Shown here in pieces: positions 3,785-27,831 of a stretch of 64,000 nt of DNA. Below the pieces are notes generated by a model that worked only from the letters and a program-made list of their open reading frames with translations, made no database searches and was not told the DNA's origin. The translations under genes and the position numbers were made by a program. The stretch is from a bacterium (GTDB taxonomy: Bacteria > UBA9089 > JAHJRX01): assembly GCA_018830565.1 (NCBI GenBank), contig JAHJRX010000043.1, forward strand, positions 9,755-73,754, in the 5' to 3' direction. Numbering within the stretch: the stretch's first letter is position 1; each line of letters begins with the position of its first letter.

Positions 3785-3900
3785 TATAGTAGTTATTAAC
3801 GAAAACTAGACATAGGAAATAATACCGAGCAATAAAAGATAAACTTGCTTGCCCTCAAATTAATTTGCTCTAGGTCAAATTTTCATTAATAAGTGCTATA
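3785..3900 (+). repeat. MITE-like ~115-bp intergenic repeat, copy A (TIR TATAGYASTTATTAAYGAAAA)
   Basis: Near-identical to 6391-6505. Reverse-complement copies at 11082-11196, 12928-13014 and 27714-27831. The termini are imperfect inverted repeats. Confidence 0.75.
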
Positions 3901-3998
3901 AAGATAAGATCATAAACTTTAATAAAGTAAGGCTATTATATCACAACATCGCGGAGAATCAAGTAAAATAAATTATAGGCAAAATTTTATCTAAGATA

Positions 3999-5108
3999 TT
4001 ATCTAAGATATTGGGCAGGATTTTTAATAGTTCCATGTTTATGGATTTCAAAGTGAAGATGGGGACCAGTAGAAATACCAGAACTTCCTGACAGGGCAAT
4101 ACCTTGCCCTTTTTCGACATAATCCCCTTTCTTAACTAAATTTCTTGAATTATGAGCATATCTAGTCACATAACCCTTATCATGTACAAGCTCTATCATT
4201 TTTCCATAGCCAAAAAACCAACCACTATAAACTACTCTCCCCGACATGGCAGCTTTGATCTTGGTACCATATGGAGTACTAAAATCAACTCCTTTATGGG
4301 CAATAATTCTCCCAAAGATAGGATGCAAACGAAATCCAAATCCTGAAACAATTTTTCCTACCACTGGCCTTATAAAACCAAAAGGTAATTCCTTAAGACG
4401 GTCTTTAAAGGGTTTATTAAGAGATTTAAAGGAACGTTCAAGGATGGCCCCAGGAAGAAAGATAGCTTCCCCCGCTCTTATTTTATATGGATTAAAGATA
4501 TAATTTGCTCTTAAGATGGTGGGAATAGATAAATTATACTTTTTAGAAACAGCCCATAAGGATTCTCCCTTTCTTAATTTATGTAAAATTCCTTTTTTGT
4601 TAGGTATTTTTAGTAATTGTCCTTTAGAAAGAACATTTCTATCTAAATTATTAAAAGAAATAATCGTACTAGGGTCAATTCCATACTTTTTCGAAATAGT
4701 CCATAAATTTTCTTTTCTTCTTACCCGGTGAAGAGTGATAAATAAATTGGCATTATTCAATAAATATTTAGCATCTTTACCAGCATATTGAACTGCTTTA
4801 AGCTGGTCAAGCTCCCTATTAACTAAATTTACAGCTTGATGAGGCTCTTCTTCTATTAAATCAACAATTAATAAATCTTGTTCATTAAGATTTTTTAATT
4901 TACTTACCTGGATAAAATCTCCTGTTTTTTTCCATTGCGTAAAAAATGGAGACAAAGAAAATATATTTATAGAGACAAAGATATGAATTAATACCCAGAC
5001 AAGGTTACCTTTATAGGTATTTTTTTTAGAAAAACCATTTTTCCAGGCAAACTTCCTGACCTTTCTCATAAATACTAACTCGGAAAAAGCACCTTTATTC
5101 TTTAGCAT
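3999..5108 (-). CDS. LysM-domain M23 family metallopeptidase
   Basis: Repeated LysM-like segments followed by an M23 active-site region (HKGVDFSTPYGTKI...GSSGISTGPHLHFEI). Confidence 0.85.
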   Translation of the reverse strand: MLKNKGAFSELVFMRKVRKFAWKNGFSKKNTYKGNLVWVLIHIFVSINIFSLSPFFTQWKKTGDFIQVSKLKNLNEQDLLIVDLIEEEPHQAVNLVNRELDQLKAVQYAGKDAKYLLNNANLFITLHRVRRKENLWTISKKYGIDPSTIISFNNLDRNVLSKGQLLKIPNKKGILHKLRKGESLWAVSKKYNLSIPTILRANYIFNPYKIRAGEAIFLPGAILERSFKSLNKPFKDRLKELPFGFIRPVVGKIVSGFGFRLHPIFGRIIAHKGVDFSTPYGTKIKAAMSGRVVYSGWFFGYGKMIELVHDKGYVTRYAHNSRNLVKKGDYVEKGQGIALSGSSGISTGPHLHFEIHKHGTIKNPAQYLR

Positions 5109-5120
5109 AATTTTAACTCT

Positions 5121-6371
5121 TTAACCTTTATTCATGGAAGCAAAAAACTCTTTATTGCTAGAAGTATTCTTTATCTTCTCAATTAATAACTCCATATTTT
5201 CTACCGAACTTAAAGGGGTAAGTAAATTACGAAGAATCCACATTTTATTTAACTCTTCTTTGGTAAGCAAAAGTTCTTCTTTTCTCGTACCAGAACGAGC
5301 AATATTAATAGCTGGAAACAATCTTCTATCAGATAAGTTACGTTCTAAATGAAGCTCCATATTGCCGGTGCCTTTAAATTCTTCAAATATTACTTCATCC
5401 ATTCTGCTTCCTGTCTCAATAAGAGCAGTAGCTAAAATAGTTAAACTTCCTCCTTTTTCAATATTACGGGCAGCTCCTAAAAATCTTTTCGGCCTATGGA
5501 GGGCATTAGAATCTACTCCTCCCGATAAAATTTTTCCACTAGTTGGAACTACTTGGTTATAAGCCCGAGCTAATCGAGTAATACTATCTAATAATATCAC
5601 GACATCAAACTTATGCTCTACTAATCTCTTAGCTTTTTCAATAACTACCTCAGCTACTTTTACATGACTTTCCGCTGGTTCGTCAAAAGTAGAGCTAACA
5701 ACTTCACCTTTTACCGATCGCTTCATATCTGTTACTTCTTCAGGTCTTTCATCAATAAGAAGAACAATAATCTTGATTTCTGGATGATTAACGCTAACAC
5801 TGTTAGCAATTTCCTGCAACAAAACAGTCTTCCCTGTCCTAGGAGGAGCTACGATTAAACCACGTTGACCTTTTCCAATAGGAGTAATGATATCCATAAT
5901 CCGCATAGAAATTTCATCACCCTCCCTCTCTAATTTTATCCTTTCACAAGGATAAAGAGGAGTGAGGTTATCAAATAAGATACGTTTATTAGCCATTTCA
6001 GGATCTTCATAGTTTACTGTTTCTACTTTAAGTAAGGCAAAAAATCTCTCACTTTCCTTAGGAGAACGAATTTGACCTGAAACAGTATCCCCGGTTTGAA
6101 GATCAAACTTCCTTATTTGAGAAGGCGAAACATAAACATCATCTTGCCCGGGCAAATAATTATAGAGAGAAGATCTCAAAAATCCATAACCATCAGGTAA
6201 CACATCTAAAGTACCTTCTGAAAAGATCAATCCATTCTTCTCGGTATGTTTTTTAAAAATAGCAAAGATTAAGTCTTGCTTCTTCATTCCTCTAACTCCA
6301 GAAATATTTAAATCTGCGATTAATTCATATAATTCCGGAATAGTCTTACTTTGGATTTCTTTAAGATGCAT
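5121..6371 (-). CDS. rho: transcription termination factor Rho
   Basis: Rho N-terminal and cold-shock-like RNA-binding region plus RecA-like ATPase ([12 protein letters not shown]; Walker [14 protein letters not shown]). Confidence 0.95.
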
Positions 6372-6390
6372 ATATTTTGTTCTCCCTCAT

Positions 6391-6505
6391 TATAGTAGTT
6401 ATTAACGAAAATTAGACATAAGAAATAATACCAAGCAATAAAAGATAAACTTGTTTGCCCTCAAATTAATTTGCTCTATGTCAAATTTCATTAATAAGTG
6501 CTATA
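6391..6505 (+). repeat. MITE-like repeat, copy B
   Basis: About 95% identical to copy A over its full length. Confidence 0.75.
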
Positions 6506-6536
6506 GATTTGATTTGCAAACATTTAGGTAGCAGCT

Positions 6537-6971
6537 TTATGTTTCTAAAATTTTGTCCTTATAAAGCAAATAAGTAGCTTTTTCTATTAACTCTCTTTTA
6601 CTCCTTCCATCTTCAGGAAAAGAAGAAAAACCAAAACTAACCTTGATATTTAAACTTTCTTTAAAATAATTTAGATCTTGCTTCAATCGATGAACGAATA
6701 ATACGACTTCCTTCTTATCCATATTAGGAAACACCATAGTCAATTCTTTTAATTTGCTTTTCCCGATTATATCTGCACTACGAGCCCTCCGAGTTAATAA
6801 TTCAATTATCTTTTTTAAATCTTCTTCTTGGTTACTTTCGCTAAGATCTAAGATAACTAAAGAAAGAGATTTTTTGCAAAGACGAGCTTTTTTTATTTCC
6901 TCATTAAACACTTCCTCTAAACTCTCCTTAGCTAATATTTTAAGATCTAACTCATTATGAGAAGAAACCAC
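6537..6971 (-). CDS. hypothetical protein (possible degenerate GGDEF-like C-terminal fragment)
   Basis: ORF only. Weak resemblance to the C-terminal part of GGDEF domains (VSFGFSSFPEDG). Confidence 0.3.
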   Translation of the reverse strand: MVSSHNELDLKILAKESLEEVFNEEIKKARLCKKSLSLVILDLSESNQEEDLKKIIELLTRRARSADIIGKSKLKELTMVFPNMDKKEVVLFVHRLKQDLNYFKESLNIKVSFGFSSFPEDGRSKRELIEKATYLLYKDKILET

Positions 6972-7027
6972 CTACTTTTCCCTCCCTTCTGAGTATTACT
7001 TAAAAATAAAGCTTAGTTAAGCTATTT

Positions 7028-7945
7028 TTAATATGTCATAATATCATTAGATGTCAGATGTAGCTTTTTAATTTTAGACTGCAAAGTCCCTCGGGATACC
7101 TTTAATAAACTAGCACTAGCGCTGATATTGCCTTCTGTCTTTTTTAAAGCCATAGAAATAGCCTCTTTCTCTGCCCTTTTAACTATCTCTTCTAAAGAAA
7201 GAATCTCCTTGTCAAGAATCTCTTTACTGGCACTCTGATCTAAATCTCCACCAGAAAGTTCTCTTAGCAAAAATATCTTTCCTAAAATCTGGTCTTTATC
7301 CCAGACCAAAGCATAACTACAATTATATTTCTTCTCATTTAACTGAACTAAAGCCTCTCTTAGACTTGACCTCTCCCGGATCTTTCTTTTAAATCTTCTA
7401 TCCTTACCTGAAATTTTAGATAATGGGGGAAATAACTCTGAAATCTTTTTCTCGTGAAATTCTAATTTTTTAAAGAGAGACTTTTTGGCTAAATCATTAA
7501 TTAAAACTATCTTTTCTTCTAAATCAGTAATGATAGAAATCACCGGAAGATTATCAAAGACCTTTCTCCATTTAATAGCAGAAAAATCTACCGGATAATC
7601 TAATGATAAAAGTATCTCTTGGATAGTCCAAAAATCTACTAAATTTCCTTCCTCATCAATGATAGGAACCTCTTTAAGATCTTTGTAATTTGAGGCTAAC
7701 TTCAAAAGATCTAAATCTTGGGGAAGATTAATACTGATCATATTCTTTATTACAAACTCCCTGAGAGGCTTTTCTAAACTTTTCAGAGAAGAGGAAGCAG
7801 TAATAAAATCTTCTTTCTTTATTATGCCTATTAATCTCTTATTTTTACCTATTACTGGAAGAGAACAAAGACCATGCCCATAAAAATATTTAAGAAGATC
7901 TCTAACTTTTAACACTTCTTGATCTTTTAAAGGCAAATTTGGCAT
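7028..7945 (-). CDS. CBS-domain protein with C-terminal Fis-type HTH (putative transcriptional regulator)
   Basis: CBS-like pair in the N-terminal half. The C-terminal ASLLKVSRGTLQSKIKKL matches the Fis/NtrC-family HTH pattern. Confidence 0.55.
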   Translation of the reverse strand: MPNLPLKDQEVLKVRDLLKYFYGHGLCSLPVIGKNKRLIGIIKKEDFITASSSLKSLEKPLREFVIKNMISINLPQDLDLLKLASNYKDLKEVPIIDEEGNLVDFWTIQEILLSLDYPVDFSAIKWRKVFDNLPVISIITDLEEKIVLINDLAKKSLFKKLEFHEKKISELFPPLSKISGKDRRFKRKIRERSSLREALVQLNEKKYNCSYALVWDKDQILGKIFLLRELSGGDLDQSASKEILDKEILSLEEIVKRAEKEAISMALKKTEGNISASASLLKVSRGTLQSKIKKLHLTSNDIMTY

Positions 7946-7990
7946 TATGGAAGATTTAGCATCATAGAAAATAAAAATTTGGTTACTAAT

Positions 7991-9646
7991 TTACATCTTA
8001 GCTGGAGCTTGAATAGCCAATATCTTAAAAACACTTCTCATAGCAAGCATAATTGCCTTGCATAAGCAGAGCCGGGCTAAAGTAAGTTCACTATCTTCAG
8101 AAATTACTCTATGTTTAGCATAATAGCTATGAAACATAGCAGCCAGATCAATTAAGTAGTTAGTTAAATGATGTGGTTCTAAGTTATTGGTAATATTAAA
8201 TATTTCATCTGGCAAGATACTTAGTTTAAAGATCATACCTAATTCTTCGGGAAGAAGTAAAAGACTTAAATTAACCTTTGAGACTAAGTATTCCCGAATA
8301 TTCTTTTCTTCTGCTTGTTGAAGAATGCTACATATACGAGCATGGGCATACTGAACATAGTAAACAGGATTATCATCTGATTTCTTTTTAGCTAATTCTA
8401 AGTCAAAGTCTAACTGAGCATCGCTATTCCGCATTAAAAAGAAAAATCTAGCTGCATCTGTGCCTACTTCATTTATTACTTCTTCTAAAGTTACATATTC
8501 ACCAGATCTTGTGGACATAGAAACTTGACGACCATCCCGCACCAAATTTACTAATTGATATAATAAATACCTCAACATCCCTGGTTTATACCCAATTAAA
8601 GAACAGGCAGACTCTATCCTTGGTACATATCCATGATGATCAGCTCCTATGATATTTATCATCCTCTCATATCCTCTTAAAAGCTTATCTTTATGATAAG
8701 CTATATCTCCTGCAAAGTAAGTAAATACCTGATTTTCTCTAACTAAAACTCGATCCTTATCATCGTTAAAAGCACTACTCTTAAACCAAACCGCCCCATC
8801 TTTTTCATAAGTATAACCTTTTTCTTTTAAAAGACTGATACACTCATTCACCTCACCTGATTCATAAAGAGTATTTTCGCTGAAAAAACGATTAAATTTT
8901 ACCCGAAAAGAAAAAAGTACTTTTATAATATCATCTAATATTTCTCTAATCGCAAATCTAGAAAAAAAATCAACTCCCCAGTCTTTATACCTAATGCCTC
9001 CTTTTTTTACTAATTTTTCAGCTAATTCTTTAATATACTCCCCTTTATAACCATCTACCGGAGGTTCTATAGAATCACCTAAAAACTTTTTATAAGCAAC
9101 TTCGAGACATCTCCCTAATAATTCAGCTTGTTTTCCTACATTGTTAATATAATATTCTTTTTCCACCAAATATCCAGTCGCCTCAAAGACATTAGCTAAA
9201 ACATCACCAATTACCGCTCCTCTTCCGTGACCTACATGTAAAGGACCAGTAGGATTAGCGCTGACATATTCTATTAATACTTTCTTATCTTTTCCAAGAC
9301 TACTAAAACCATATTCTTCACCTGCTTCTTCAATGCATCCTAATGTTTTGCCCAAACGATCTTTACTAATAAATATGTTAACAAAACCTCTTCCTGCTAC
9401 CTCAGTTTTTTCAATCACCTCTTTATCTTTTATATTTTCTACAATAATCTTAGCGATCTTAACCACATCTTCCCCTATGCTTTTAGCTAAAATAAAAGCT
9501 ATATTAGAAGAAAGATTTCCATGAGAACTAATCTTAGGGGTTTCTATAATTATTTCAGGCAATTTACATTCAGGAAGCTTTTGCTCTTTTATAGCTCTCA
9601 AGAGAGCTTCCTTGATAATTTTTCTAACTTCTTCTTTAAGAAACAT
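7991..9646 (-). CDS. argS: arginine--tRNA ligase
   Basis: HIGH-class motif (PTGPLHVGHGRG) and MSTRSG (KMSKS-equivalent). 551 aa with ArgS architecture. Confidence 0.95.
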   Translation of the reverse strand: MFLKEEVRKIIKEALLRAIKEQKLPECKLPEIIIETPKISSHGNLSSNIAFILAKSIGEDVVKIAKIIVENIKDKEVIEKTEVAGRGFVNIFISKDRLGKTLGCIEEAGEEYGFSSLGKDKKVLIEYVSANPTGPLHVGHGRGAVIGDVLANVFEATGYLVEKEYYINNVGKQAELLGRCLEVAYKKFLGDSIEPPVDGYKGEYIKELAEKLVKKGGIRYKDWGVDFFSRFAIREILDDIIKVLFSFRVKFNRFFSENTLYESGEVNECISLLKEKGYTYEKDGAVWFKSSAFNDDKDRVLVRENQVFTYFAGDIAYHKDKLLRGYERMINIIGADHHGYVPRIESACSLIGYKPGMLRYLLYQLVNLVRDGRQVSMSTRSGEYVTLEEVINEVGTDAARFFFLMRNSDAQLDFDLELAKKKSDDNPVYYVQYAHARICSILQQAEEKNIREYLVSKVNLSLLLLPEELGMIFKLSILPDEIFNITNNLEPHHLTNYLIDLAAMFHSYYAKHRVISEDSELTLARLCLCKAIMLAMRSVFKILAIQAPAKM

Positions 9647-10109
9647 AATTTCAACCCTTAATTTAATGAAGATTTTATAAAATAATTATCCTGACGGAAG
9701 AAAACTTGAAGATTTTTCTGGTTATGCTTAAACAAATCAGGATAGCCATAAGTGCTATAAGATTTAAAAACTTAGAATAACCTTAATGCTTAATAATTCT
9801 TGATTGGCATTTTTAATTTTGGGGTACTTGCGAAGTAGGTCATTTGATTCTTGATTTAATCTTTAGTCTATCGTCTGATCTCGACAATCTTGGGTCTGTT
9901 TAAATTTTCGTAACCCAATCTTTGTTAAGCATAATGGTAAATGTTCAATGATAAACATTCAATGATAAATGTTCAAGTATTAGCTTTCCAGATAGCAGTT
10001 TTATTAGAGATAAGTCCATTAAGGCAAGAAAGGATTTTTGCCAAACAAACTACTCCCTGATTTTGTTAGCTTTAGCTAACGGCTGAATGTTTACGGATAA
10101 TGTTAATAA

Positions 10110-10988
10110 TTATCTCTCTTCTATAAACTTATCTATGACTTTTTTGACGGTATTAATAGGAATAGCAAACCCAATACCTTGAGCTTGGGCTACAATAGCT
10201 GTATTTATACCTATAACTTCTCCTAACTCATTGACTAAAGGCCCGCCGCTATTTCCTGGATTAATAGAAGCATCAGTTTGGATCAGACCTTTGTAAATTC
10301 GACCAAAACTTTTCACTCCTGGCAATTCTCTTCCTTTAGCGCTAATCACTCCTACCGTGACCGTATGATTTAATCCAAATGGATTCCCCACCGCGATAGC
10401 CCATTCTCCTACTACTAACTGATCAGAATTACCTAAGATAGCACAAGGAAGATCTAAAGATTTTATCTTTAAAAGAGCTACGTCTTCATCGACATTAGAT
10501 CCTACTATTTTAGCAGGAAAACTTCTTCCGTCAAGCAATTTAATTTCTATACCCAAAGCACCCCTAACAACATGCTCATTAGTAACGATATAACCATCTT
10601 TACTAATAATTATACCTGAACCTAAAGAAGTTTGTTCAAACTCTCGGACAGAAAATTCTTCAAAAGAATCTCTAAAAAAATCTCTAAAGAATTGATCATG
10701 AAAATCAAAGAAAGGATCTTTAATCCTAACTTGTCGTTTAATACCAATATTTACTACTGCTTTATTTGCTTTTTCTATAGCGCTTACTAAATTACCTTGA
10801 AATACAGGGGGTTTGTATTGTATCTGATTTGTGTCTACTTGGGGAAATCTTTGTTCAATTAATAAGGTTGAGGATAATAATTTTTTCTTTACTTTATCGA
10901 AGGCTAGGTGAGATGCCCAATAATAACTTACTATAATTCCTACTAATATACCTCCGATAAAATAAGATAATCTATATTCCTTCTTCAT
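10110..10988 (-). CDS. trypsin-like serine protease (S1C, HtrA-like, no PDZ)
   Basis: N-terminal TM segment. Catalytic motifs TNEHVV, D and GNSGGPLVN. Confidence 0.8.
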   Translation of the reverse strand: MKKEYRLSYFIGGILVGIIVSYYWASHLAFDKVKKKLLSSTLLIEQRFPQVDTNQIQYKPPVFQGNLVSAIEKANKAVVNIGIKRQVRIKDPFFDFHDQFFRDFFRDSFEEFSVREFEQTSLGSGIIISKDGYIVTNEHVVRGALGIEIKLLDGRSFPAKIVGSNVDEDVALLKIKSLDLPCAILGNSDQLVVGEWAIAVGNPFGLNHTVTVGVISAKGRELPGVKSFGRIYKGLIQTDASINPGNSGGPLVNELGEVIGINTAIVAQAQGIGFAIPINTVKKVIDKFIEER

Positions 10989-11081
10989 CTTTAAAGTATA
11001 TTTTAAAGATTTTAAAGATTAATGTCAACTAAAAATATCTCTCGGTGTAGTAATTTCTCATCTTATATTAATAACGTTTAA

Positions 11082-11196
11082 TATAGCACTTATTAATGAA
11101 AATTTGACATAGAGCAAATTAATTGAGTGCCAACGAGTTTATCTTTTATTGCTCGGTATTATTTCCTATGTCTAGTTTTCGTTAATAAGTGCTATA
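11082..11196 (-). repeat. MITE-like repeat, copy C (inverted orientation)
   Basis: Reverse complement of copies A and B. Overlaps the last codons of the permease gene. Confidence 0.75.
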
Positions 11197-11980
11197 TATT
11201 CCTCTTGCCGAGAAGTATTCGTAGAATAATAAATATTAACAAAGAAATAAAAATTAAGATTACTCCTACTGGCTGAGCATAAGAAAGACCATAAGATTGA
11301 AATCTTTCAAATAACAACACAGGAGCCACCATCGGATGATAAGCGATAATTAATACGGCTCCAAACTCACTAATTCCTCTGGCCCACATCATCATCATTC
11401 CAGAAATAATACTCCTTTTAGCCAAAGGCAAAGAAACAGTGGAAAAAGCATAAAATCCATTCGCCCCTAAAGTCCGAGCTGCTTTTTCTAATTTTACATC
11501 AACGGCTTGAAAACCTTCTTTAGCAGCATTAATTAAAAAAGGCAAACTCACAAAAGACATGGCTATTATTATCCCAGAGAGGTTACCAATAAATTCTAGA
11601 CCCAAAGAAGCAAATATCTTGCCAACTATAGAATTTCGATGAAAAGCCATTAAGAGAGCAATTCCAGCGGCTGTATGAGGAATGACTACAGGAAGATCAA
11701 TGATTCCTTCAATAATTTCTTTACCTTTAAAATCATAACGAGCTAAACAATAAGCTAATGGAATGCCAAAAATAAAAGCCAATAAAGTAGAGATTAAACC
11801 GGCATACATAGTTAATAAGATGCTCTGGTTAACTACATGGTCATTTAAGGTTTCCCATAGTATTTTAGGATTAGTAGTTATTACTATCTTTATCAAAGGA
11901 AAGAGAATAAAAAAGATAATAATGCTACCTAAAAAGAAGAATAATATCTTTAACTGGTTAAGGTTTCTTATCCTCTTCAT
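11192..11980 (-). CDS. ABC transporter permease, tungstate/molybdate (ModB/WtpB) type
   Basis: Six TM helices with the EAA-like loop (AKRSIISGMMMMWARGISEFGAVL) typical of the ModB/CysTW family. Confidence 0.75.
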   Translation of the reverse strand: MKRIRNLNQLKILFFFLGSIIIFFILFPLIKIVITTNPKILWETLNDHVVNQSILLTMYAGLISTLLAFIFGIPLAYCLARYDFKGKEIIEGIIDLPVVIPHTAAGIALLMAFHRNSIVGKIFASLGLEFIGNLSGIIIAMSFVSLPFLINAAKEGFQAVDVKLEKAARTLGANGFYAFSTVSLPLAKRSIISGMMMMWARGISEFGAVLIIAYHPMVAPVLLFERFQSYGLSYAQPVGVILIFISLLIFIILRILLGKRNI

Positions 11981-12926: not shown

Positions 12927-12927
12927 T

Positions 12928-13014
12928 AAAGCACTTATTAATGAAAATTTGACATAGAGCAAATTAATTTAACTCCAAACAAGTTTATCTTTTGTTACTC
13001 GGTATTATTTCCTT
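12928..13014 (-). repeat. MITE-like repeat, copy D (truncated at both ends)
   Basis: Matches the internal part of copy C. Bounded by the binding-protein gene 5' end and the stop of the J-domain gene. Confidence 0.65.
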
Positions 13015-13808
13015 TGATTGATCTTATCTTCTTCAAAATTATATTCTAAAGTTTCTAAGGCTTTCTTAACATTAAATCTTACTTCTTCAGATTCTTGTTC
13101 GTTATAAAATATCTCTAAAAGAGGAGGAATAGCTCTTTTATCCTTTAGTCTTCCTAAGCTTTCCGCGGCATAATTTCTTACTAATTCCCATTTATCCTTT
13201 AATCTTTCTATTAATGGCTCTACCGCTCTAAGATCTCCAATTTCACCTAAAGCCACCGCCGCAAAATACCGAACTTCATGATTTTGGCAACTTAATTCAT
13301 CAATTAAAGGTAACACTGTGGGTTCTCTAATTTCAACTAACTTCATCTTAGCTTTCCAGCGAAATTCAATAGAATTTCGAGGATCTTTGATAATCTTAAG
13401 GAACAACTTTATTCTCTCGTCCTTATTTTCTTCTTCTTTTTTGTAAAATTTTTCTCTCTTAACTTCTTTATGCTTAATTAATTCCTTCAACATCTCTTCT
13501 TCTTTCTTTTTATAATACTCTTCTCTTTCTTTGGATCGATTCAACATTTCTTCTTTGTGTACCTTAAATTGATAAGAATATAAAAAGACATCTTTTTGTT
13601 TATAATAATCTTTATCGAAGGACTTTCTTCTTTCAGGGTCTATCAGGACACCATAAGCTTCAGTAACCTCAATCATCTTTTCTTCCTGCCCTAACATCCG
13701 ATCAGGATGATATCTTAAAGCTAACAATCGATAAGCTCTTCTAATCATAGGAGCCTCGGCATTTGGACTTACTTGTAATACTTGATAATAATCTTTAAAT
13801 CTTGACAT
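13005..13808 (-). CDS. J-domain protein with C-terminal HEAT-like (PBS lyase) repeats
   Basis: N-terminal DnaJ signature YYQVLQVSPNAEAPMIRRAYRLLALRYHPD. The C-terminus has repeated ...VRxxAAxALGxIGDxRAVxPL... HEAT repeats. Confidence 0.7.
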   Translation of the reverse strand: MSRFKDYYQVLQVSPNAEAPMIRRAYRLLALRYHPDRMLGQEEKMIEVTEAYGVLIDPERRKSFDKDYYKQKDVFLYSYQFKVHKEEMLNRSKEREEYYKKKEEEMLKELIKHKEVKREKFYKKEEENKDERIKLFLKIIKDPRNSIEFRWKAKMKLVEIREPTVLPLIDELSCQNHEVRYFAAVALGEIGDLRAVEPLIERLKDKWELVRNYAAESLGRLKDKRAIPPLLEIFYNEQESEEVRFNVKKALETLEYNFEEDKINQRK

Positions 13809-13825
13809 CTTTACTTTCTATGAAG

Positions 13826-18623: not shown

Positions 18624-18855
18624 TAATCTTCCTCCCTATTGTTCATTATTCTTTAAATAATAATGCACTTTTTATCTTTAATTGTCAACAAAATTTGTTT
18701 AACTGATGTTATGATTTCATAGACCTTTTTTTCTTTGACAGTTGCCAAAGATTTGGCTATAATTAAGAGGTTGGAAAGATTTAAACTTTAAGCAAATAGA
18801 ATGAAAATTATAAGAAAAAATTATAAATTATATGTGTTAATAAATTGGTGAAAAG

Positions 18856-19188
18856 ATGAGCTACCAACATAAAAACCTGGCTGATGGTAGATGGTTTGAA
18901 CTTTCGTTTCCGGTTCAAATGGCTAATATTGGAAGTGAAGTCAATCGGGCTATTAACTGGAAGAATAAAAATAATCCAGAATATAGCAGGCAAGCTTTCG
19001 AACGAGTTTTAGAACTTCTCCATTTAACCATTTCTGACCCAAAAAATAAAAAACGTCTCAGAGAATTAACCCGTCTTTATGAGATCTTAGCTGACTACTT
19101 TGCTTTTGACAATGAATATGGCTCTACTGACCAATCCTGGCAAAATTATTTCTTGGCCTTCAATTATTTAGCACGAGCAAGGTATTGA
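18856..19188 (+). CDS. hypothetical protein
   Basis: 110-aa ORF with a plausible RBS (gaaaagATG). No recognisable domain. Confidence 0.3.
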   Translation: MSYQHKNLADGRWFELSFPVQMANIGSEVNRAINWKNKNNPEYSRQAFERVLELLHLTISDPKNKKRLRELTRLYEILADYFAFDNEYGSTDQSWQNYFLAFNYLARARY

Positions 19189-19281
19189 TATTTGTCAGCT
19201 AACGAGACATTATAGAATAATATTCTTCTCTTCTTTTAGGTATTGAACGAGTGTAACTTATTTTTTTCATATCAAGTTAAT

Positions 19282-20082: not shown

Positions 20083-20412
20083 TTGTCTTAATACCTAAAT
20101 TTCCGAATTTTTATAACTATTTTATAGCTATAAGTTGGTAACCCTTTAAAAATAAAGGGAATTAACCCCGGTTATTGTTCCCGGTCATAGTTATAGTAAA
20201 ATTATAATTCGGAAGAAAAAATATGTCAAAATAAAAATAAAGATTATGGCAATCGGTTAGTCATTGGTATTTTTAAACCAATCTTCAAGGCTTGGCTTTT
20301 TTAATCTCTTTTGAGCAGTTGGCCAAACAATTATCAAGATAGATCTGGTTAATATTCCTTTCTTAGGCTGAGAACCAAAACTTACTTTCTTAGCAAGGAC
20401 AGGAGGTCTTAA

Positions 20413-20432
20413 TTTTCGTTAATAAGTGCTAT
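20413..20432 (-). repeat. solo TIR fragment of the MITE-like family
   Basis: ttttcgttaataagtgctat matches the element terminus. Confidence 0.4.
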
Positions 20433-20490
20433 CGACGGCATTAATTTAATTTTCATTGACTAAGAATAGACTTATTTGATATATTTTTTT

Positions 20491-20762
20491 AGTCGTGCTA
20501 GACGGGGAGCCAGCGGTGCCCTGTAACCTGCAATCCGCTATAGCAGGGTTTAATTCCTACCCTAAGTTTTATTAACCATTAGATAAGTTTTTAAAAAGTA
20601 GTGTTGATAGCTAAGTCCTTTGCAATTATTTATTACCTAACTCCGCCAGGTCTGGAAAGAAGCAACGGTAAGTAATGGGTAATTGGCAAGAGGGCTGCTT
20701 AGCTGGAGCTAACCATTAAGAACTTACTTTTAGTTAGAAATTAAAGGTAGGTGCACGACTAA
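20491..20762 (+). ncRNA. ffs: signal recognition particle RNA, long (Bacillus-type) form with Alu domain
   Basis: 5' region GUCGUGCUAGACGGGGAGCCAGCGGUGCCCUGUAACCUGCAAUCCGCUAUAGCAGGG closely parallels the B. subtilis scRNA Alu domain. Domain IV motif CCAGGUCUGGAAAGAAGCAAC is present. The 3' end GGUGCACGAC pairs with the 5' end. It sits immediately upstream of dnaX, as in many Firmicutes-like genomes. Confidence 0.8.
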
Positions 20763-20811
20763 ATTTTTTTAATAAAGATTTTTAATAAAGAGTAAGAAAA
20801 ATAAGAAAATT

Positions 20812-22428
20812 ATGAGTTATGTAGCCTTAGCGAGAAAGTGGCGGCCACAAAGATTTGAAGAATTAATTGGTCAAGAACACATTACTACTTCTTTAAAGAA
20901 TGTGATCTTGGGTAATCGAATAACCCAGGCTTATCTTTTTGCTGGTCCTCGGGGAACAGGTAAGACTACGGCAGCTCGGATCTTAGCGAAAGCTATAAAT
21001 TGTCAAGAAAAAGATCTAAATTTTCGACCTTGCAATAATTGTAACTTTTGTTTAGAAGTTACCAAGGGTAGCTCTTTAGATGTATTAGAGATTGATGGGG
21101 CATCTAATAGAGGAATTGATGAGATTAGAGAGCTTAGAGAAAGAATAAAGTTTGCACCGGTTAGTTTAAAATATAAGATTTATATTATCGATGAAGTCCA
21201 TATGCTTACCGAGCCAGCTTTTAATGCCTTACTTAAAACTTTAGAAGAACCGCCTTCTTATGCAATCTTTATCTTTGCTACTACTGATCCTAATAAGGTT
21301 CCCCTAACCATTCTTTCTCGATGCCAGAGATATGATTTCCGAAGAATTTCCAAGGAAGATATGATTAAGGCTTTAGAAAGAATTGCCCAAGAAGAAGGGG
21401 TAATCGTAGATTCTTCTGCTTTAGATTTAATCTCCCTTAAGGCTACAGGAAGTTTAAGGGATGGTCAAACCATCTTAGAGCAGTTAATTACTTATAAAGG
21501 AGAGGTGATTAAGAAAGAAGATGTCTTATCCTTATTAGGCAAAGCTTCCTACGAAAATTTAATTAATCTTAGCCAGTCCATTAGTTGTCAAGATATTACC
21601 CGTTGTTTAAGTTTAATCAAGGAATTATACTATCAAGGTTTAGATTTAAAACAATTAGTCTTTGATCTTCTGCAATTTTATAAGGATTTATACTTATTAA
21701 AGATTTCGTCTCACCTGGTTGAAGTATTAGAATTATCAAAGAATGAACTTGATCCTTTAATGGAACAGGTAAAAAATTATTCTTTGGAATATTTAAAAAA
21801 TATCATTGAATGTTTAAAGAAACTTTATTCAGAGCTTAAAGGGACAGATCATCCTAAATTAATCTTAGAATTAGGGATGATGGACTTAATAGAGCTTAAA
21901 GATAAAGTTCCTATCTCCCATATTTTAAGCCAATTAAAAGAGATCGAAGAAAGAGGTAAAGCAAAAGAGCTTACTTTTTCTTTAAAGAAAGATGACAGTG
22001 TTTCTTTGTTATCTGAATTATCCGAACATTCTTCTTTGGAAATTATTCCTTCTTTAAATTTAGAAGAAGCTCAGAGAGGATGGTCTTTGTTATTAGAGAG
22101 GTTAAAAAAGAAAAAAGCATCTTTAATTGGTTTTTTAAGCCAAGGAGAGATTATAGGAATTAATAATGATACTCTTATCCTTGGTTTTAAAGAAAGTTTT
22201 TATTCTAAAATGATAGAGAAAAAGGAAAATAAAGAGATTATTGAAGAAGAAATCAGAAATGTGTTTAATCAGGAACTAAGATTAAAGATTGTTGCTCAAA
22301 AAAAGAATGAAGTAAAAAAAGAAGAAGCTGATGAATTAAATTACAGTTTACTATTAGATAGGGAGCCGGTAGTTAAAGAAACTTTAGAAATATTTGAAGG
22401 GCAAATAATAAGCATAAAGAATAAGTAA
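20812..22428 (+). CDS. dnaX: DNA polymerase III subunits gamma/tau
   Basis: Walker A GPRGTGKTT, a zinc module CxxC...CxxC and DEVHML. Confidence 0.95.
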   Translation: MSYVALARKWRPQRFEELIGQEHITTSLKNVILGNRITQAYLFAGPRGTGKTTAARILAKAINCQEKDLNFRPCNNCNFCLEVTKGSSLDVLEIDGASNRGIDEIRELRERIKFAPVSLKYKIYIIDEVHMLTEPAFNALLKTLEEPPSYAIFIFATTDPNKVPLTILSRCQRYDFRRISKEDMIKALERIAQEEGVIVDSSALDLISLKATGSLRDGQTILEQLITYKGEVIKKEDVLSLLGKASYENLINLSQSISCQDITRCLSLIKELYYQGLDLKQLVFDLLQFYKDLYLLKISSHLVEVLELSKNELDPLMEQVKNYSLEYLKNIIECLKKLYSELKGTDHPKLILELGMMDLIELKDKVPISHILSQLKEIEERGKAKELTFSLKKDDSVSLLSELSEHSSLEIIPSLNLEEAQRGWSLLLERLKKKKASLIGFLSQGEIIGINNDTLILGFKESFYSKMIEKKENKEIIEEEIRNVFNQELRLKIVAQKKNEVKKEEADELNYSLLLDREPVVKETLEIFEGQIISIKNK

Positions 22429-22472
22429 TCGTTAGCTAACAATAATGAAGAAAAAATAATGAAAAAGAAATA

Positions 22473-23618
22473 ATGAAGAAGATAAGAATTATAGAATTAA
22501 AAAGAAGTTGGACCATGGCTGGACCTGAAAGCTTAATCTTGTCTGTTGCCAAAAAGATAAATAAAGTACTTTTTGATCCTCTGGTTATCACTTTTGGTCT
22601 TCCTAAGACCCCGTCTCAACCTACTTTATACCAAATAGCCAAATCTATAAATTTAAAAGCCGTTGATCTGCCTTCAAAATCAAAATATAATCCTTCTATT
22701 ATTGCAAAAGTCTTGAGCTTGATTAAAGAATATGATATTAATATTATTCATACTCATGATTTTAAATCTAACCTGATAGGACTTATCACCGCTTTACTTT
22801 ATAAGAAACCACTTATTACTACTATTCATGGTCGTCTTTCTACTCCTTTTAGAGTAAGAATATACGAATCCATTGACTCTTTATTAATTAGATTTTTTGA
22901 TAAGGTAGTGGTAGGATCTAATGATTTAAAAGAAAAGCTAATTAAAAAGTGGAAAATATCTCCTCAAAAGATAGAATTAATTCACAATAGCGTGGATATC
23001 CTTCGATTTAACCTTCCTCTTGATAGTGATCGAATTAAAGCTGAGTTTAAAATCAAAGAAGATGAAATAATAGTTACTACTATAGGCCAGCTCAAAAAAG
23101 AAAAAGGAGTAGAGTATTTATTAGCCGCCGTTCCTAAAGTTATAGAAAAATTTAAAGAAGTGAGATTTTTAATCTGTGGCGAAGGGGAGTATAAAGAAGA
23201 GTTAATTAAGTTAGCTGAAAAATTAAACATTACTAAAAATGTAATCTTTACTGGTTATTATGATGATTTAAGTCAAGTCTTAGGGGTTTCCGATCTATTT
23301 ATTACTCCTTCCTTGATGGAAAGCTTACCTATTGTAATATTAGAGGCAATGTGTGCCGGTCTTCCTATTATCGGAACTAAGGTAGGGGATATTCCATTTT
23401 GTATAAATAGTAAAAATGGTTTATTGATAAAGCCAAAGAGCAGTGAAGAAATTTCTAAGGCCCTAATAAAACTATTAACTAATAAAGAAAAGTTAAAAGA
23501 AATGGGAAAAGAAAGTCGAAATTTAGTTAAGGAAAAATTTTCGGATGAAGTTATGGTGAAAAAGATAGAAGGTATTTATTTAAGTTTAATTAATTCAAGA
23601 GTTAGCCATGGAAGATAA
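22473..23618 (+). CDS. glycosyltransferase family 4 (GT-B)
   Basis: C-terminal E-X7-E-like region (ESLPIVILEAMCAGLPIIGTKVGDIP) of GT4 enzymes. Confidence 0.85.
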   Translation: MKKIRIIELKRSWTMAGPESLILSVAKKINKVLFDPLVITFGLPKTPSQPTLYQIAKSINLKAVDLPSKSKYNPSIIAKVLSLIKEYDINIIHTHDFKSNLIGLITALLYKKPLITTIHGRLSTPFRVRIYESIDSLLIRFFDKVVVGSNDLKEKLIKKWKISPQKIELIHNSVDILRFNLPLDSDRIKAEFKIKEDEIIVTTIGQLKKEKGVEYLLAAVPKVIEKFKEVRFLICGEGEYKEELIKLAEKLNITKNVIFTGYYDDLSQVLGVSDLFITPSLMESLPIVILEAMCAGLPIIGTKVGDIPFCINSKNGLLIKPKSSEEISKALIKLLTNKEKLKEMGKESRNLVKEKFSDEVMVKKIEGIYLSLINSRVSHGR

Positions 23619-24732
23619 AAAAAATGGTCGATTAATAAAAGGCATTAATAGATTAAAGATGCTTTTAACTTCTCCTAATGCCAAGAGCATCACCAGATTT
23701 CAATTTGCGGTCACTTATTTATGTAATAGTCGTTGCGCTACCTGTAATATTTGGAGAATTTATCATAACGATCCTAACTTACTAAAAGAAGAGCTAACCT
23801 TTGAGGAAATTGTAAGAATATTTAGCTCTATAAAGGACATGAAAGACATTAAGCAAATATCCTTCACCGGAGGTGAACCTTTTTTAAGGAAAGATTTTGT
23901 GGATATCTATTTGTTCTTTTCTAAGATATATGAAAATTCTTCTCTCTATCTTGTCACTAATGGCATAAATAATCAACTAATTATAGATAAAATAGAAAGA
24001 ATTAAGAAGGAAAGTAGTCTTTCTCGATTAAAGTTAGGAGTTTCCTTAGATGGCATTGGAAAAAATCATGATAAAATCAGGGGCATAGAAGGTAATTATG
24101 AAAAAGTTTTAAGTTTGGTCAATTTTATAAAAAGTAGTTATCCAGAAATAGAGTTAAATTTAAGCTTTACGATTAGTGAAGGTAATTTTAGAGAAATTGA
24201 AGAAGCTTATCGAATCTCTAAAGAGAATAAAGCTTTGTTTTCCTTTAGATTTGCTCAAGTTAGTGGTAGTTATTATCAAAATAAAGAAATGAATTTTATT
24301 TGGCCCAAAGAGATTTTAAAAGAAGTAAGTTCCACCATAGATAAAATAACAGGTGATATGGATCAACATCGAGATCTATTGGAAAAACTTTTTAGACTTG
24401 ATGTCCATTTCTTAAAAAGACTGGTAAAATATCAAATAGAACAAAGAAGAATCTTTAATTGTTATTCTGGCACTCATTCTTTTTTCCTTGATCCTTACGG
24501 AAAAATATATCCTTGTATTAACTTATCCAGTGTTTATGGAAATGCAAAAGAAGAAGATTTTAATAATTTTTGGTTCTCTAAAAAAACTAAAAGTATTAGA
24601 GAAGGAATAAAGAGAGGTAAGTGCCATTGTTGGACAGAATGCGAAACCATTCCTTCCTTGCAAAGAAGCCCTTTGCCTTTAATAAGTAATTTCCTTAATT
24701 TTATCTTTAAGTTACTAAACTATAAAAATTAA
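23608..24732 (+). CDS. radical SAM protein with C-terminal SPASM/twitch-like Cys cluster
   Basis: CNSRCATC (CxxxCxxC) near the N-terminus. C-terminal CYSG...C...CHCWTEC auxiliary cluster pattern. Confidence 0.8.
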   Translation: MEDKKNGRLIKGINRLKMLLTSPNAKSITRFQFAVTYLCNSRCATCNIWRIYHNDPNLLKEELTFEEIVRIFSSIKDMKDIKQISFTGGEPFLRKDFVDIYLFFSKIYENSSLYLVTNGINNQLIIDKIERIKKESSLSRLKLGVSLDGIGKNHDKIRGIEGNYEKVLSLVNFIKSSYPEIELNLSFTISEGNFREIEEAYRISKENKALFSFRFAQVSGSYYQNKEMNFIWPKEILKEVSSTIDKITGDMDQHRDLLEKLFRLDVHFLKRLVKYQIEQRRIFNCYSGTHSFFLDPYGKIYPCINLSSVYGNAKEEDFNNFWFSKKTKSIREGIKRGKCHCWTECETIPSLQRSPLPLISNFLNFIFKLLNYKN

Positions 24733-24734
24733 AT

Positions 24735-25571
24735 ATGGATAAAAGATTAGATCTTTCTATTACGATCATCAGCCATAACCATGGACATTTTTTAACGCCT
24801 TGCTTAGCATCTCTTTATAAATATGCTCAAGGATTTACTTTTGAAGTCCTTCTAATCGATAATAAATCTGACGATCAGACCGTAGAAATTATAAAGAATA
24901 ATTTTCCAGAAGTAGCTTTAATAGAAAATAAAAAGAGGTATAGTTTTGCTAAAAATAATAATATTGGGATAAAATATTCCAAAGGAAGATATATTTTACT
25001 TTTAAATCCTGACACTACTTTTTCAGATAACGCCTTAAAAAAGGTGATAGAATTTATGGATGAACATGAAGAAGTAGGTATTTCTGCTTGTAAATTACTA
25101 AATCCTGATGGAACTATTCAAGATAGTTGTCGTAAATTTCCAACTCCTTTAGCTATTTTATTTCGAGGTTTTAGACTCGATAGATGGTTTAAGAATGTCC
25201 AATTCTACCAAAATTATTTAATGCACAACTTCGACCATAATTTTTTAAAAGAAATTGATTGGGCTTTAGGAGCTTTTTTATTTGTAAGAAGGGAAGTAAT
25301 TAAAAAGGTAGGGATGATGGATGAAAAATATCCTTTATATTATGAAGATATAGATTGGTGTTTTAGAGTTAAAGAAAGTGGGTGGAAGATATATTATCTA
25401 CCTCATGTTTCTATTACTCATCACTATCTAAGGACTTCAGCAAAAAGTTTTCTTAATAAAAGAAAGATCTTTCATTTGATTAGTATTGGTCATTTTTATA
25501 ATAAACACGCTTTAACCATGTTAAAAAACTCAATATGGAAAAGGAATAAAGAAAATGTCTATAAAAAATAA
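24735..25571 (+). CDS. glycosyltransferase family 2
   Basis: LSITIISHN...LLIDNKSDDQT...LNPD... DxD-containing GT-A fold pattern. Confidence 0.85.
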   Translation: MDKRLDLSITIISHNHGHFLTPCLASLYKYAQGFTFEVLLIDNKSDDQTVEIIKNNFPEVALIENKKRYSFAKNNNIGIKYSKGRYILLLNPDTTFSDNALKKVIEFMDEHEEVGISACKLLNPDGTIQDSCRKFPTPLAILFRGFRLDRWFKNVQFYQNYLMHNFDHNFLKEIDWALGAFLFVRREVIKKVGMMDEKYPLYYEDIDWCFRVKESGWKIYYLPHVSITHHYLRTSAKSFLNKRKIFHLISIGHFYNKHALTMLKNSIWKRNKENVYKK

Positions 25572-26361
25572 TTGTAAAAAGAATAACCTAAAAAAAGTTT
25601 ACGAAAGAGAAAGTAAGTTTTGGGATAATCAAGTAACCTTTTCTCTTAAGGATGAAAAAGATCTATTGGTCGATGAGGATAACTTAAATGAATTAGAAAG
25701 TTTTATTTTTGAAAGATTGGGTGACTTAAGAGATAAAAAAGTTTTAGATTGTGGATGTGGGTCTGGAGTGCTTTCTACTATTTTAGCTAAAAGAGGAGCT
25801 TTGGTCTCTGCTTTTGACATTTCTTCTGAATCAACTAAGCTAACTAAGAAAAGAGCAGAAATAAATGGAGTAGGGGAAAGGGTCGAGGTAAAAGTTATGC
25901 CTTTTGAAAAACTTGGTTATTCTGACCAATGTTTTGACTTAGTGGTTGGTTACTTTATTCTCCATCATATAGATGTAACTAAAGGAGCTCTTGAACTAAA
26001 AAGAGTTTTAAAAGATGAAGGTCGGGCTATATTCTTAGAAAATTCTAGTCGTAACTTTTTATTAATGATGGCTAGGAAACTTCTAACTGGGCGCTTTGGC
26101 ATTCCTAAGCATGGATCGGCAGATGAAATTCCTTTGGGCAATAAAGATATTAAACAAATGGGCAAGATTTTTAGTGAATATAAAGTTCATTATAAGAATT
26201 TCTTCTTTTTTAGGCTTCTAGACGAATTTATTTTTAAGGGAAAAAGTAAAGCCGTGGCTAAAATTTTAAAAATATTAGATGTATTTTTTTATAAATACCT
26301 TCCCCTAATTCGACAATTTAGTTATCTTCAGATTGCAGAGTTTAACAAAGTAAAAAATTAG
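25555..26361 (+). CDS. class I SAM-dependent methyltransferase
   Basis: VLDCGCGSGVLS motif I. Confidence 0.8.
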   Translation: MSIKNNCKKNNLKKVYERESKFWDNQVTFSLKDEKDLLVDEDNLNELESFIFERLGDLRDKKVLDCGCGSGVLSTILAKRGALVSAFDISSESTKLTKKRAEINGVGERVEVKVMPFEKLGYSDQCFDLVVGYFILHHIDVTKGALELKRVLKDEGRAIFLENSSRNFLLMMARKLLTGRFGIPKHGSADEIPLGNKDIKQMGKIFSEYKVHYKNFFFFRLLDEFIFKGKSKAVAKILKILDVFFYKYLPLIRQFSYLQIAEFNKVKN

Positions 26362-26480
26362 CAGCAATTTTAATTATGAAAAAGTTGCCATGAAAAGATT
26401 GTACTTCTTTAAGTGTTGTTATAAAGTTAAAATGTTATAGTTTATTATAGCATATGGCATAAAAATAAAGGTTTAACTTT

Positions 26481-27182
26481 ATGGAAAAGGTATCTATCTT
26501 TGTAGCTTTTACAGCAGGAGTTTTTACCTTTTTTACTCCTTGTTTCTTTCCCCTTGTGCCCACATACCTTGTTTTTATTACCGGCTTATCATTTAATGAT
26601 TTGCTGACCAATACTTCCTTAAAGTTGACCAGGAATAACTTATTAATAAACACCTTCCTCTTTATTTTGGGCTTTTCCATCATTTTTATACTTTTAGGCG
26701 CCTCTATTACTTACTTAAGTAGTTTATTATATGAATATCAGGATATTTTTAAGAAGATAGGCGGAGTGGTAGTAGTTTTCTTAGGTTTGTATATCTTAGG
26801 AGTTTTTAAGATAAGTTTTTTACAAAGAGAATTTAAAATACATTTAAGACAAAAGTCGTGGGGGGTTTTAGGATCTTTTCTGACTGGGGTTACTTTTGCT
26901 CTTGGTTGGTCACCTTGTGTAGGGCCAATCTTAGGATCTCTTTTAGTTTACGCCAGTACCACCGCTACCTTGTATCAAGGAATTTATTTGCTGATTTTTT
27001 ATTCTTTAGGCTTAGGAATACCTTTTTTATTGGTATCTGTCTTGTTAAGCACCTTTATGAGCTATTTTGATAAATTTAAAAAGTCATTACTTTTCATAAA
27101 TAAAGCTTGTGGAGTATTTTTAATCTTAATAGGAATTATCATTTTCTTAGATAAATTTAATGGTCTTCAAAGATTGCTTTAA
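26481..27182 (+). CDS. ccdA: cytochrome c-type biogenesis protein CcdA (DsbD-family thiol-disulfide transporter)
   Basis: Two conserved Cys in TM1 and TM4 (FFTPCFFPLVP ... GWSPCVGPILG). Confidence 0.8.
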   Translation: MEKVSIFVAFTAGVFTFFTPCFFPLVPTYLVFITGLSFNDLLTNTSLKLTRNNLLINTFLFILGFSIIFILLGASITYLSSLLYEYQDIFKKIGGVVVVFLGLYILGVFKISFLQREFKIHLRQKSWGVLGSFLTGVTFALGWSPCVGPILGSLLVYASTTATLYQGIYLLIFYSLGLGIPFLLVSVLLSTFMSYFDKFKKSLLFINKACGVFLILIGIIIFLDKFNGLQRLL

Positions 27183-27212
27183 AAGTAAATTAACTTAAGG
27201 AGGAAATAAAAG

Positions 27213-27656
27213 ATGAAATTCATTCATAGGTTACTACTCTGGCTTGAAGTTGTTTTAGGCATAGTGATTGTAGTCATAGTTGTTTTTGGTTTATACCTGA
27301 TAGTAGTTTCCATTACTCAAGTACAAACTGTTTCCTTAGGTAAGTTTCATATTATTTTTGAAACGATCTTAAGTGATCTTCTTTTGCTAATAGTGGGGCT
27401 GGAAATGGCTGTGATGATGATTCAACGAAGAATGGAACTTTTGCCAGAAATTTTAGCTTTTGTGGTAGGAAGAAAGCTTCTCCTTATGATTCCAAATACT
27501 TATGAACTAATAATTTGGGTATTGGCTGTAGGGGCATTGTTTGCTATTCGGAAGTATTTGACTAAATGTGAAGGCTGCCTTAAATTTGAGCGATTAATAT
27601 TAACAGGAGAAATTAGGCAAGACAAAAAAGATGAAACAGTTAAAACAGTTACTTAA
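27213..27656 (+). CDS. small membrane protein, unknown function
   Basis: Four predicted hydrophobic helices. Confidence 0.4.
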   Translation: MKFIHRLLLWLEVVLGIVIVVIVVFGLYLIVVSITQVQTVSLGKFHIIFETILSDLLLLIVGLEMAVMMIQRRMELLPEILAFVVGRKLLLMIPNTYELIIWVLAVGALFAIRKYLTKCEGCLKFERLILTGEIRQDKKDETVKTVT

Positions 27657-27713
27657 TCATGAGAAATTCTCAGGTTAAAGTTTCGGGTAAAAAAAACATG
27701 TAATCTCTTGTTT

Positions 27714-27831
27714 TATAGCACTTATTAGTCAAAATTTGACTTAGAGCAAATTAATTTTTAACTCCAAGCAAGTTTATCTTTTATTAGTTGGTATTATTTC
27801 CTATTTCCAGTTTTTGTTGATAACGACTATA
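27714..27831 (-). repeat. MITE-like repeat, copy E (divergent, inverted orientation)
   Basis: Same architecture as copy C with more substitutions (ttgttgataacgactata terminus). Confidence 0.65.

Follow-up and report, generated by a model that had tools for sequence, protein, structure and literature searches.

A family of ~116-bp intergenic repeats in an uncultured bacterium, very probably derived from an IS630-family insertion sequence by internal deletion

The first half of a 64,000-nucleotide stretch of contig JAHJRX010000043.1 (assembly GCA_018830565.1; hereafter the window) carries five copies of a short non-coding repeat among housekeeping genes, namely prmC, prfA, thyX, rpmE, an M23 peptidase gene, rho, argS, an htrA-like gene, wtpB/wtpA-like genes and the gene for signal recognition particle (SRP) RNA. 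The initial annotation of the window took these copies for non-autonomous MITEs (miniature inverted-repeat transposable elements), with the proviso that they would be better described as a conserved regulatory motif if they were restricted to the window and lacked target-site duplications or any full-length autonomous relative. The locus raises the question of where the repeat came from and whether it does anything for its host. We conclude with high confidence that the ~116-bp copies constitute a MITE family that arose by internal deletion of a ~1087-bp IS630-family insertion sequence (IS) with a 121-aa orfA and a 203-aa orfB.

An nhmmer profile built from the five window copies was run on the 64-kb window and recovered exactly five places, all of them as annotated, with E-values between 1e-27 and 1e-35. 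No nhmmer match with E<1 was obtained beyond position 27,831 of the window. When aligned, the five places resolve into one ~116-bp unit with long invariant blocks, and the similarity ends abruptly at TATAG... on one side and ...CTATA on the other. The copies and two smaller remnants are listed below; the plus strand denotes the orientation in which the orfA-side (left) end, TATAGTAG, lies at the low coordinate.

3785..3900, plus strand: Copy A, full length, 116 bp (nhmmer E=1.8e-35), between the rpmE promoter and the rpmE ribosome-binding site
6391..6505, plus strand: Copy B, full length, 115 bp (nhmmer E=1.2e-31), in the spacer between a GGDEF-like gene and rho
11082..11196, minus strand: Copy C, full length, 115 bp (nhmmer E=3.7e-33), with GCAC-type ends on both sides
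12927..13028, minus strand: Copy D, without the left inverted repeat (nhmmer model positions 15-115, E=1.7e-27)
27714..27831, minus strand: Copy E, full length, 118 bp, the most divergent copy (nhmmer E=4.7e-30)
20411..20433, plus strand: solo terminal inverted repeat TTTTCGTTAATAAGTGCTATC, a 19/21 match to the terminal inverted repeat and a remnant of a lost copy
9748..9759, plus strand: 12-nt terminal scrap ATAAGTGCTATA, whose sequence is that of the right end's final 12 nt

Several details of the annotated picture shifted on closer inspection. The solo repeat, placed near 20413-20432, is real. The weaker fragment reported near 9746-9762 is present, but it comprises merely the 12 nt listed above; the nhmmer profile gives no match there, and the scrap may be an end remnant or a chance match. 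Copy D, described as truncated at 12928-13014, does lack its left end, but the remnant extends further, to ~13,000-13,028. The inverted repeats themselves, put at ~22 bp, are longer and less perfect, spanning ~30 bp with complementarity between both ends at 27 of the first 36 positions. A left/right asymmetry is conserved, the ends reading TATAGTAG... and ...CACTATA (reverse complement), respectively. Copy E falls into a subfamily with a TTTTGACTAATAAGTGCTATA right end, which is identical to the right end of an IS at locus L063. At 115-118 bp and with stop codons in all six frames, the MITE has no coding capacity of its own. A 19-nt end motif, searched with up to three mismatches, occurs 10 times in the window compared to 0.07 expected from shuffles.

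The family is also present outside the window. Metagenome loci were collected by exact matches to an invariant 22-nt core, so the copy numbers given here are lower bounds. A scan of public JGI metagenome contigs yielded 56 loci from three related samples (Ga0180007, Ga0180008 and Ga0180009); three of these loci represent the window's own region in a sibling strain (99% identity). A profile search of the 56 loci plus the window found 83 instances, corresponding to ~64 distinct sites after identical flanks had been merged, and at least 45 distinct sites came from a single metagenome sample. Full-length copies of 115-118 bp with sharp TATAG...CTATA boundaries occupy 44 of the ~64 sites. Their median pairwise identity of 90% lies within the annotated span of 85-95%, but the full range is wider (73-99%). 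The median GC content of the metagenome loci is 34%, like that of the first half of the window. Neither viral contigs nor the GTDB representative genomes (one per species) contained the 22-nt core (0 matches each), and its lack of matches among the latter indicates that the host species is not one of the GTDB representatives. Exact-sequence look-ups for the Rho and TP_methylase proteins of the window likewise returned no record. The observation that no copy lies after ~28 kb, or outside the AT-rich half, thus holds for the window, whereas the family itself is not confined to it.

The origin of the family is revealed by longer elements with the same termini. A search for stray ends identified a 290-bp element (L046:2485-2774) that combines MITE termini with a different interior. 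This interior translates to ...DNTGWHKT...YSPDLNPIEELW... (DNTGWHKTKRLNWEILEPMYLLTYSPDLNPIEELW...) and matches the Pfam family DDE_3 with 34.4 bits, compared to a cutoff of 28.6. The product of its 64-aa open reading frame (ORF) is MBU2599145.1, and the Rho protein of the window is MBU2599591.1. The closeness of the two accessions suggests that the relic and the window belong to the same metagenome-assembled genome (MAG), and therefore that a remnant of the parent IS, shortened by deletion, persists in the host. When relatives of the relic fragment were used to seed a profile search, many 203-aa DDE_3 proteins were returned on contigs of 1-2 kb, and each of the corresponding ORFs was preceded by a 121-aa helix-turn-helix (HTH) ORF. 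Three complete ISs consisting of orfA (HTH) and orfB (DDE_3) could be delimited:

L061: 1087-bp IS, in GCA_017973895.1
L062: 1087-bp IS, in ENA ERZ23498405
L067: 1087-bp IS, in uncultured bacterium DRR093003_bin.2, from an end-motif scan of GTDB genomes

A conceptual -1 frameshift fusion of the two L067 ORFs matched NF033545, 'IS630 family transposase', across positions 1-296 of 299 with 204 bits (cutoff 100), and contains the Pfam domains HTH_23/28/29/33 followed by DDE_3. Annotated 'IS630 family transposase' relatives on plasmids share only ~30% identity with these proteins. All three ISs have a run of eight to nine A residues (A8-9) at the orfA/orfB overlap, at IS position 408, so that making the full transposase presumably requires programmed frameshifting or transcriptional slippage. 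An IS of the cognate type that the initial annotation had proposed to look for was thus found, in other uncultured bacteria.

The ends of these ISs correspond closely to those of the MITE. L062 and L067 share the left end TATAGTAGTTATTAATCAAAA, which matches the MITE left end, TATAGTAGTTATTAACGAAAA, at 19/21 positions, while the right end agrees with the MITE sequence ...TTTTCATTAATAAGTGCTATA at 21/21 (L062) and 20/21 (L067) positions and 31-32 of the last 34 nt match. Between the two IS ends, positions 6 and 8 differ (the left has TAG, the right CAC when reverse-complemented), and this asymmetry is kept in 30 of the 44 MITE copies. The correspondence includes coding sequence: the transposase ORF stops inside the right repeat of the IS (...S-I-C-S-M-S-N-Y-D-stop), and frame +0 of the MITE reads ...I-C-S-M-S-N-F-H-stop-stop, so that the last eight transposase codons are retained. 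The last ~42 bp of the MITE therefore represent the IS end including the final transposase codons and the stop. On the other side, alignment of the left 41 bp of the MITE with the L046 relic's left end gives 26/32 matching positions plus a separate 7/7 block. The retained codons document an origin of the MITE by internal deletion, and MITE, relic and full-length IS together provide a clear IS630-family example outside cultured bacteria. With ~64 sites on many contigs of three metagenome samples, a relic and three ISs with matching ends, the family is neither restricted to the window nor devoid of full-length relatives, and the annotated assignment as non-autonomous MITEs is borne out.

Comparison with relatives provided evidence that the copies are insertions. 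Loci L057 and L058, whose Rho proteins are 86% and 84% identical to that of the window, respectively, keep the gene order argS, HTH8, GGDEF, rho, M23 peptidase, rpmE, thyX, prfA. Neither has an element at site A or B; their site B spacers are 33 and 118 bp long, respectively. At site A, the rpmE promoter (TTGAT-N16/17-TGnTATAAT) is common to the window and both relatives, whose flanks are too diverged for an exact insertion junction to be read. The intact MITE copies and the three full-length ISs all start with TA-TAG and end with CTA-TA. No flanking direct repeat was found outside the TATAG/CTATA termini, and the immediate flanks are A/T-rich, with no G at position -1 and one C at position +1. 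Elements of the IS630/Tc1-mariner group target TA dinucleotides, which become duplicated upon insertion (PMC2170065). Considering this family behaviour, the invariant termini and the lack of another flanking repeat, the data are consistent with a TA target duplication in the present family.

In such a scheme, a transposase supplied in trans would bind both MITE ends through its N-terminal HTH domains, the element would be excised by double-strand cuts, and it would be pasted into a TA dinucleotide that becomes duplicated; TAG...CTA would then make up the element proper, with TA on either side. Insertions would survive in intergenic spacers only. The type of spacer was scored with a crude ORF-based gene call for 47 scorable copies: 40 lie between co-directional, four between divergent and three between convergent genes, in proportions similar to those of background spacers (414/25/33). 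As 40 of the 47 sites separate co-directional genes, most copies are probably co-transcribed and would fold as a long imperfect hairpin.

A number of points weigh against an origin by deletion and transposition. Sampling by the exact 22-nt core favours well-conserved copies. For the central ~30 bp of the MITE, comparison with the IS gave only short, unconvincing aligned blocks. An intact autonomous copy was not found in ~570 kb of host contigs, which contained only solo ends and the L046 relic, and with only a relic seen there, current mobility is unproven. Copies A and B are present with identical spacing in each of seven sibling assemblies (Rho variant P0243), which gives no sign of recent movement. 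No empty site with near-identical flanks was encountered, as flank-to-flank BLAST among the fetched loci gave self matches only and the siblings were all occupied. Finally, the candidate duplicated TA is indistinguishable from conserved element ends.

While the ends and the retained codons speak for the origin of the family, a MITE by origin might still have been retained for a function, either at the RNA level (RNase III-processed hairpins, mRNA stability) or as promoter modules in which terminal TATA+NN junctions provide -10 boxes for neighbouring genes, as has been reported for the Correia elements of Neisseria. We regard such retention as unlikely. In its favour, most copies reside inside operons, and Copies A and B are fixed across every one of the sibling assemblies examined. 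Folding of the element, as proposed in the initial annotation, indeed gave a long imperfect hairpin (consensus -27 to -32 kcal/mol), and for the RNA of Copy A on the rpmE strand the hairpin reached -29.2 kcal/mol with z=-4.5 relative to shuffled sequence. However, a long hairpin is an automatic consequence of the inverted repeats, and variation among the 44 copies mostly breaks the pairs: across the paired positions we counted 102 pair-breaking cells, 52 one-sided changes that still pair and only 4 compensatory cells. There is also no orientation bias, as copies point about evenly with and against transcription, and the proportions of intergenic types equal the background.

For a promoter function, the right terminus, TGcTATA+NN, resembles an extended -10 box where the flank gives A/T, the left junction of Copy B makes TATAAT just before the rho ribosome-binding site, and each copy has a weak inward TTAACG-16-AATAAT site. 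Against this, the count of promoter-like sites did not exceed that in shuffled sequence, a terminator scan detected no terminator-like site within any copy, and rpmE, the HtrA-like gene and the SRP RNA gene each have a native promoter separate from the elements. Given these separate promoters and the lack of strand bias, there is no sign that the -10-like termini are used. The contribution of Copies C and D to neighbouring genes, which supplies stop codons and possibly a start codon, may likewise be counted in favour of a retained role. As far as can be judged from sequence, nothing indicates a selected RNA or regulatory role of the MITE, and the suggestion that it carries a promoter, a terminator or a small RNA found no support from Rfam, covariation or the promoter and terminator scans. 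The copies instead look like neutral to mildly consequential passengers that decay slowly and have local side effects on gene ends.

The hairpin would also fit a structured small or cis-acting RNA under selection for its fold, or a REP/REPIN (repetitive extragenic palindrome) mobilised by a RAYT tyrosine transposase, as it is significantly more stable than shuffled sequence and a GTAG tetranucleotide close to the left end bears a superficial resemblance to REPs. Both are highly improbable. No Rfam family matches the element at gathering thresholds, and a permissive E-value threshold returned only MIR1514, a generic plant miRNA hairpin, with 23.7 bits compared to a threshold of 90. Covariation is essentially absent and there is no strand bias. 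The G-G mismatch at the asymmetry positions, kept in 30 of the 44 copies, is common to the full-length IS, and therefore transposase-binding ends fit better than an RNA stem. Moreover, the ends belong to a DDE (IS630-family) element and not to a Y1 element.

A conserved, immobile cis-regulatory motif, such as an operator or promoter cassette of a common regulator, deserves hardly any credence: the repeat is palindromic and always intergenic near gene starts or ends, but it is a 116-bp unit with sharp boundaries and 90% identity beside unrelated housekeeping genes (rpmE, rho, htrA, wtpA and others), occurs in both orientations, is missing from the same spacers in syntenic relatives, and is already contradicted by the homology of its ends and last codons to an IS630-family IS.

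As annotated, the copies occur in both orientations and always between genes; this holds across the sites found, and no gene is interrupted by any copy. For ~8 of 47 copies, the upstream ORF terminates within the element, which thus supplies the stop codon. In the window, the terminal TA-TAG of Copy C (11192-11196) provides the TAG stop of the permease gene 11192..11980, in agreement with the annotated overlap, and the copy is placed upstream of the promoter-like site of the HtrA-like gene (11028-11000). Copy A is situated within the 5' untranslated region of rpmE, whose promoter is at 3935-3962 on the minus strand (TTGATT-16-TGaTATAAT), and the left end of Copy B adjoins the ribosome-binding site of rho.

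Copy D has the most elaborate setting. Its right end (GTGCTTTA) abuts ATG 12926 of the WtpA-like gene, and the upstream DnaJ/HEAT-like gene (13005..13808) has its TAA stop within the Copy D remnant. The longest WtpA-like ORF on the minus strand begins at a MITE-derived TTG (12962), nine nt upstream of which is a MITE-derived GGAG. Starting at TTG 12962 adds MLYVKFSLISAL and gives a signal peptide more typical than that from ATG 12926, which has no Shine-Dalgarno sequence. Hence the view that Copy D artificially extends this ORF is doubtful, and Copy D may supply the ribosome-binding site, the start codon and part of the signal peptide of the WtpA-like gene. The family thereby accounts for element-derived stop codons of several genes, and in this one case possibly for a ribosome-binding site, a start codon and part of a signal peptide. 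It also explains recurrent assembly breaks and ORF-track artefacts at gene ends in this uncultured lineage.

IS630-derived bacterial MITEs are already well known, and the present family adds another example and no new mechanism. The closest parallels are RUP and Correia elements, both IS630-derived MITEs with TA at their ends (PMC2817692; PMC2229807). In Streptococcus pneumoniae, the IS630-family element IS630-Spn1 is presumed to mobilise RUP in trans, with insertion at TA (PMC2229807). RUP and the window MITE are non-coding intergenic elements of ~107-116 bp with tens to hundreds of copies; in both cases, the inverted repeats match an IS630-family IS and the evidence has the same logic, combining common ends with TA. 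Unlike RUP, to which it has no sequence relationship, the present family lives in an uncultured low-GC diderm-type bacterium from groundwater metagenomes, its parent-type IS has a split orfA/orfB with an A-run, and no intact partner turned up in the host contigs searched. The preference for inserting into other ISs that is reported for RUP was not seen in the window family.

The full-length relatives conform to the IS630 family (e.g., IS630, ISY100) in that they match NF033545 end to end with HTH followed by DDE_3, measure ~1.1 kb, have ~30-bp imperfect inverted repeats with the transposase stop inside the right repeat, and possess termini compatible with TA duplication. They deviate in their low identity (~30%) to annotated plasmid transposases and in the splitting of the gene at the A8-9 run.

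Correia elements (CREE/NEMIS) share with the window MITE a length of ~105-155 bp, TATAG...CTATA termini and TA at the ends; in both, -10-like boxes can arise where a terminus meets the flank, and any transcript would fold into a long hairpin. One MITE subfamily has a left end (TATAGTAGTTATTAACGAAAACCGG) that agrees with the Correia repeat (tatagtggattaacaaaaaccgg; PMC5039591) at 21/23 positions with one 2-nt gap, anchored at position 1. None of 5000 shuffles equalled this score (0/5000), for a comparison made after the resemblance had been noticed. In contrast, the ends of the full-length IS resemble Correia far less. The host is not Neisseria, and the likeness is partial and limited to the ends of one subfamily, which makes it a resemblance and not membership. 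Correia elements are reported to be Neisseria-specific, with promoter, IHF-site and RNase III roles (PMC5039591; PMC2229807); these roles belong to Correia, and none is shown for the window family. We therefore treat the similarity, which is suggestive but weak as a sequence match, as a lead and not as a finding.

To our knowledge, the autonomous parent of the Neisseria Correia elements has never been identified. That the 1087-bp split-transposase IS630 subgroup with TATAGTAG...ATTAA... ends might be a close relative of this parent is a long shot. If true, the transposases of this subgroup could be tried in experiments aimed at mobilising Correia elements. The family is otherwise an ordinary genome parasite, and the similarity to Correia ends is its sole wider hook.

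Additional observations concern elements with related ends in other genomes. In the MAG 'Yes70-06' (GCA_030017825.1), the source of L058, six such IS ends were present, mostly at contig edges, together with a pseudogenised copy. A Nitrospira sp. MAG (SBAY01000292.1, L071:7767-7957) contains a 191-bp MITE-like element with IS630-subgroup ends and an unrelated, internally palindromic core. Judged by shared ends, a widespread IS630 subgroup has given rise to several short derivatives, of which the window family is one. A single right-end match in a MAG of the Asgard archaeon Ca. Hodarchaeum mangrovi (L066:6024-6048) could be a remnant, contamination or chance. At L061, identical 28-bp sequences (TA-ctttaggttacaaaatactccttc-TA; 137-164 and 1250-1277) lie on both sides of the 1087-bp IS; they stem either from an assembly that looped through two adjacent insertion alleles or from a true long duplication.

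At four loci (L044:~1712-1732, L043:~507-527, L020:~11749-11765 and L071:7970-7990), a full copy is immediately followed by a repeat of the last 13-20 nt of its right end. These stubs may result from aberrant or abortive transposition, or from local duplication. At L025:11170-11366, 82 bp of a half-element are duplicated in tandem. Apparent nested insertions at L054, L025, L044, L043 and L020 had been considered as candidate target-site readouts and were rejected, being local duplications or solo ends.

The distribution of copies within the window coincides with a step in base composition. At 33.55-33.63 kb (33550-33630), in the spacer before cobO, the GC content jumps within ~100 bp from 30-34% to 40-49%. 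The region from 34000 to 64000 is a tightly packed cluster of cobalamin, CobN-chelatase, TonB-receptor and CbiM genes and has no MITE copies. With five copies per 34 kb in the first half, ~4 would be expected in the remaining 30 kb, so that finding none is mildly unusual (Poisson P ~0.01). A recently acquired island, short operon spacers and an assembly join would each fit the MITE-free GC-rich half. The only contig found to span the GC junction was the window's own source contig (L080; ENA ERZ27247117 k141_336465), and a Logan contig breaks off 45 bp beyond cobO. By coordinate arithmetic, two sibling contigs would seem to cross the boundary, although the sequence there could not be read. A 19-mer in a 250-bp spacer of the GC-rich half (48946-48964; TATAGCATTCATTAATTAA) matches the MITE end at 16/19 positions, a similarity that chance (0.07 expected per window) or a very old solo end could explain.

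The solo end at 20411-20433 is located ~60 bp upstream of the SRP RNA gene (20493-20758), just before its promoter-like site (20456-20485; TTGACT-18-TGtTATATT). This SRP RNA is of the large bacterial type (RF01854, 161.6 bits). Taken with the TonB-dependent receptor encoded in another part of the window, this type points to a diderm lineage of an unusual kind.

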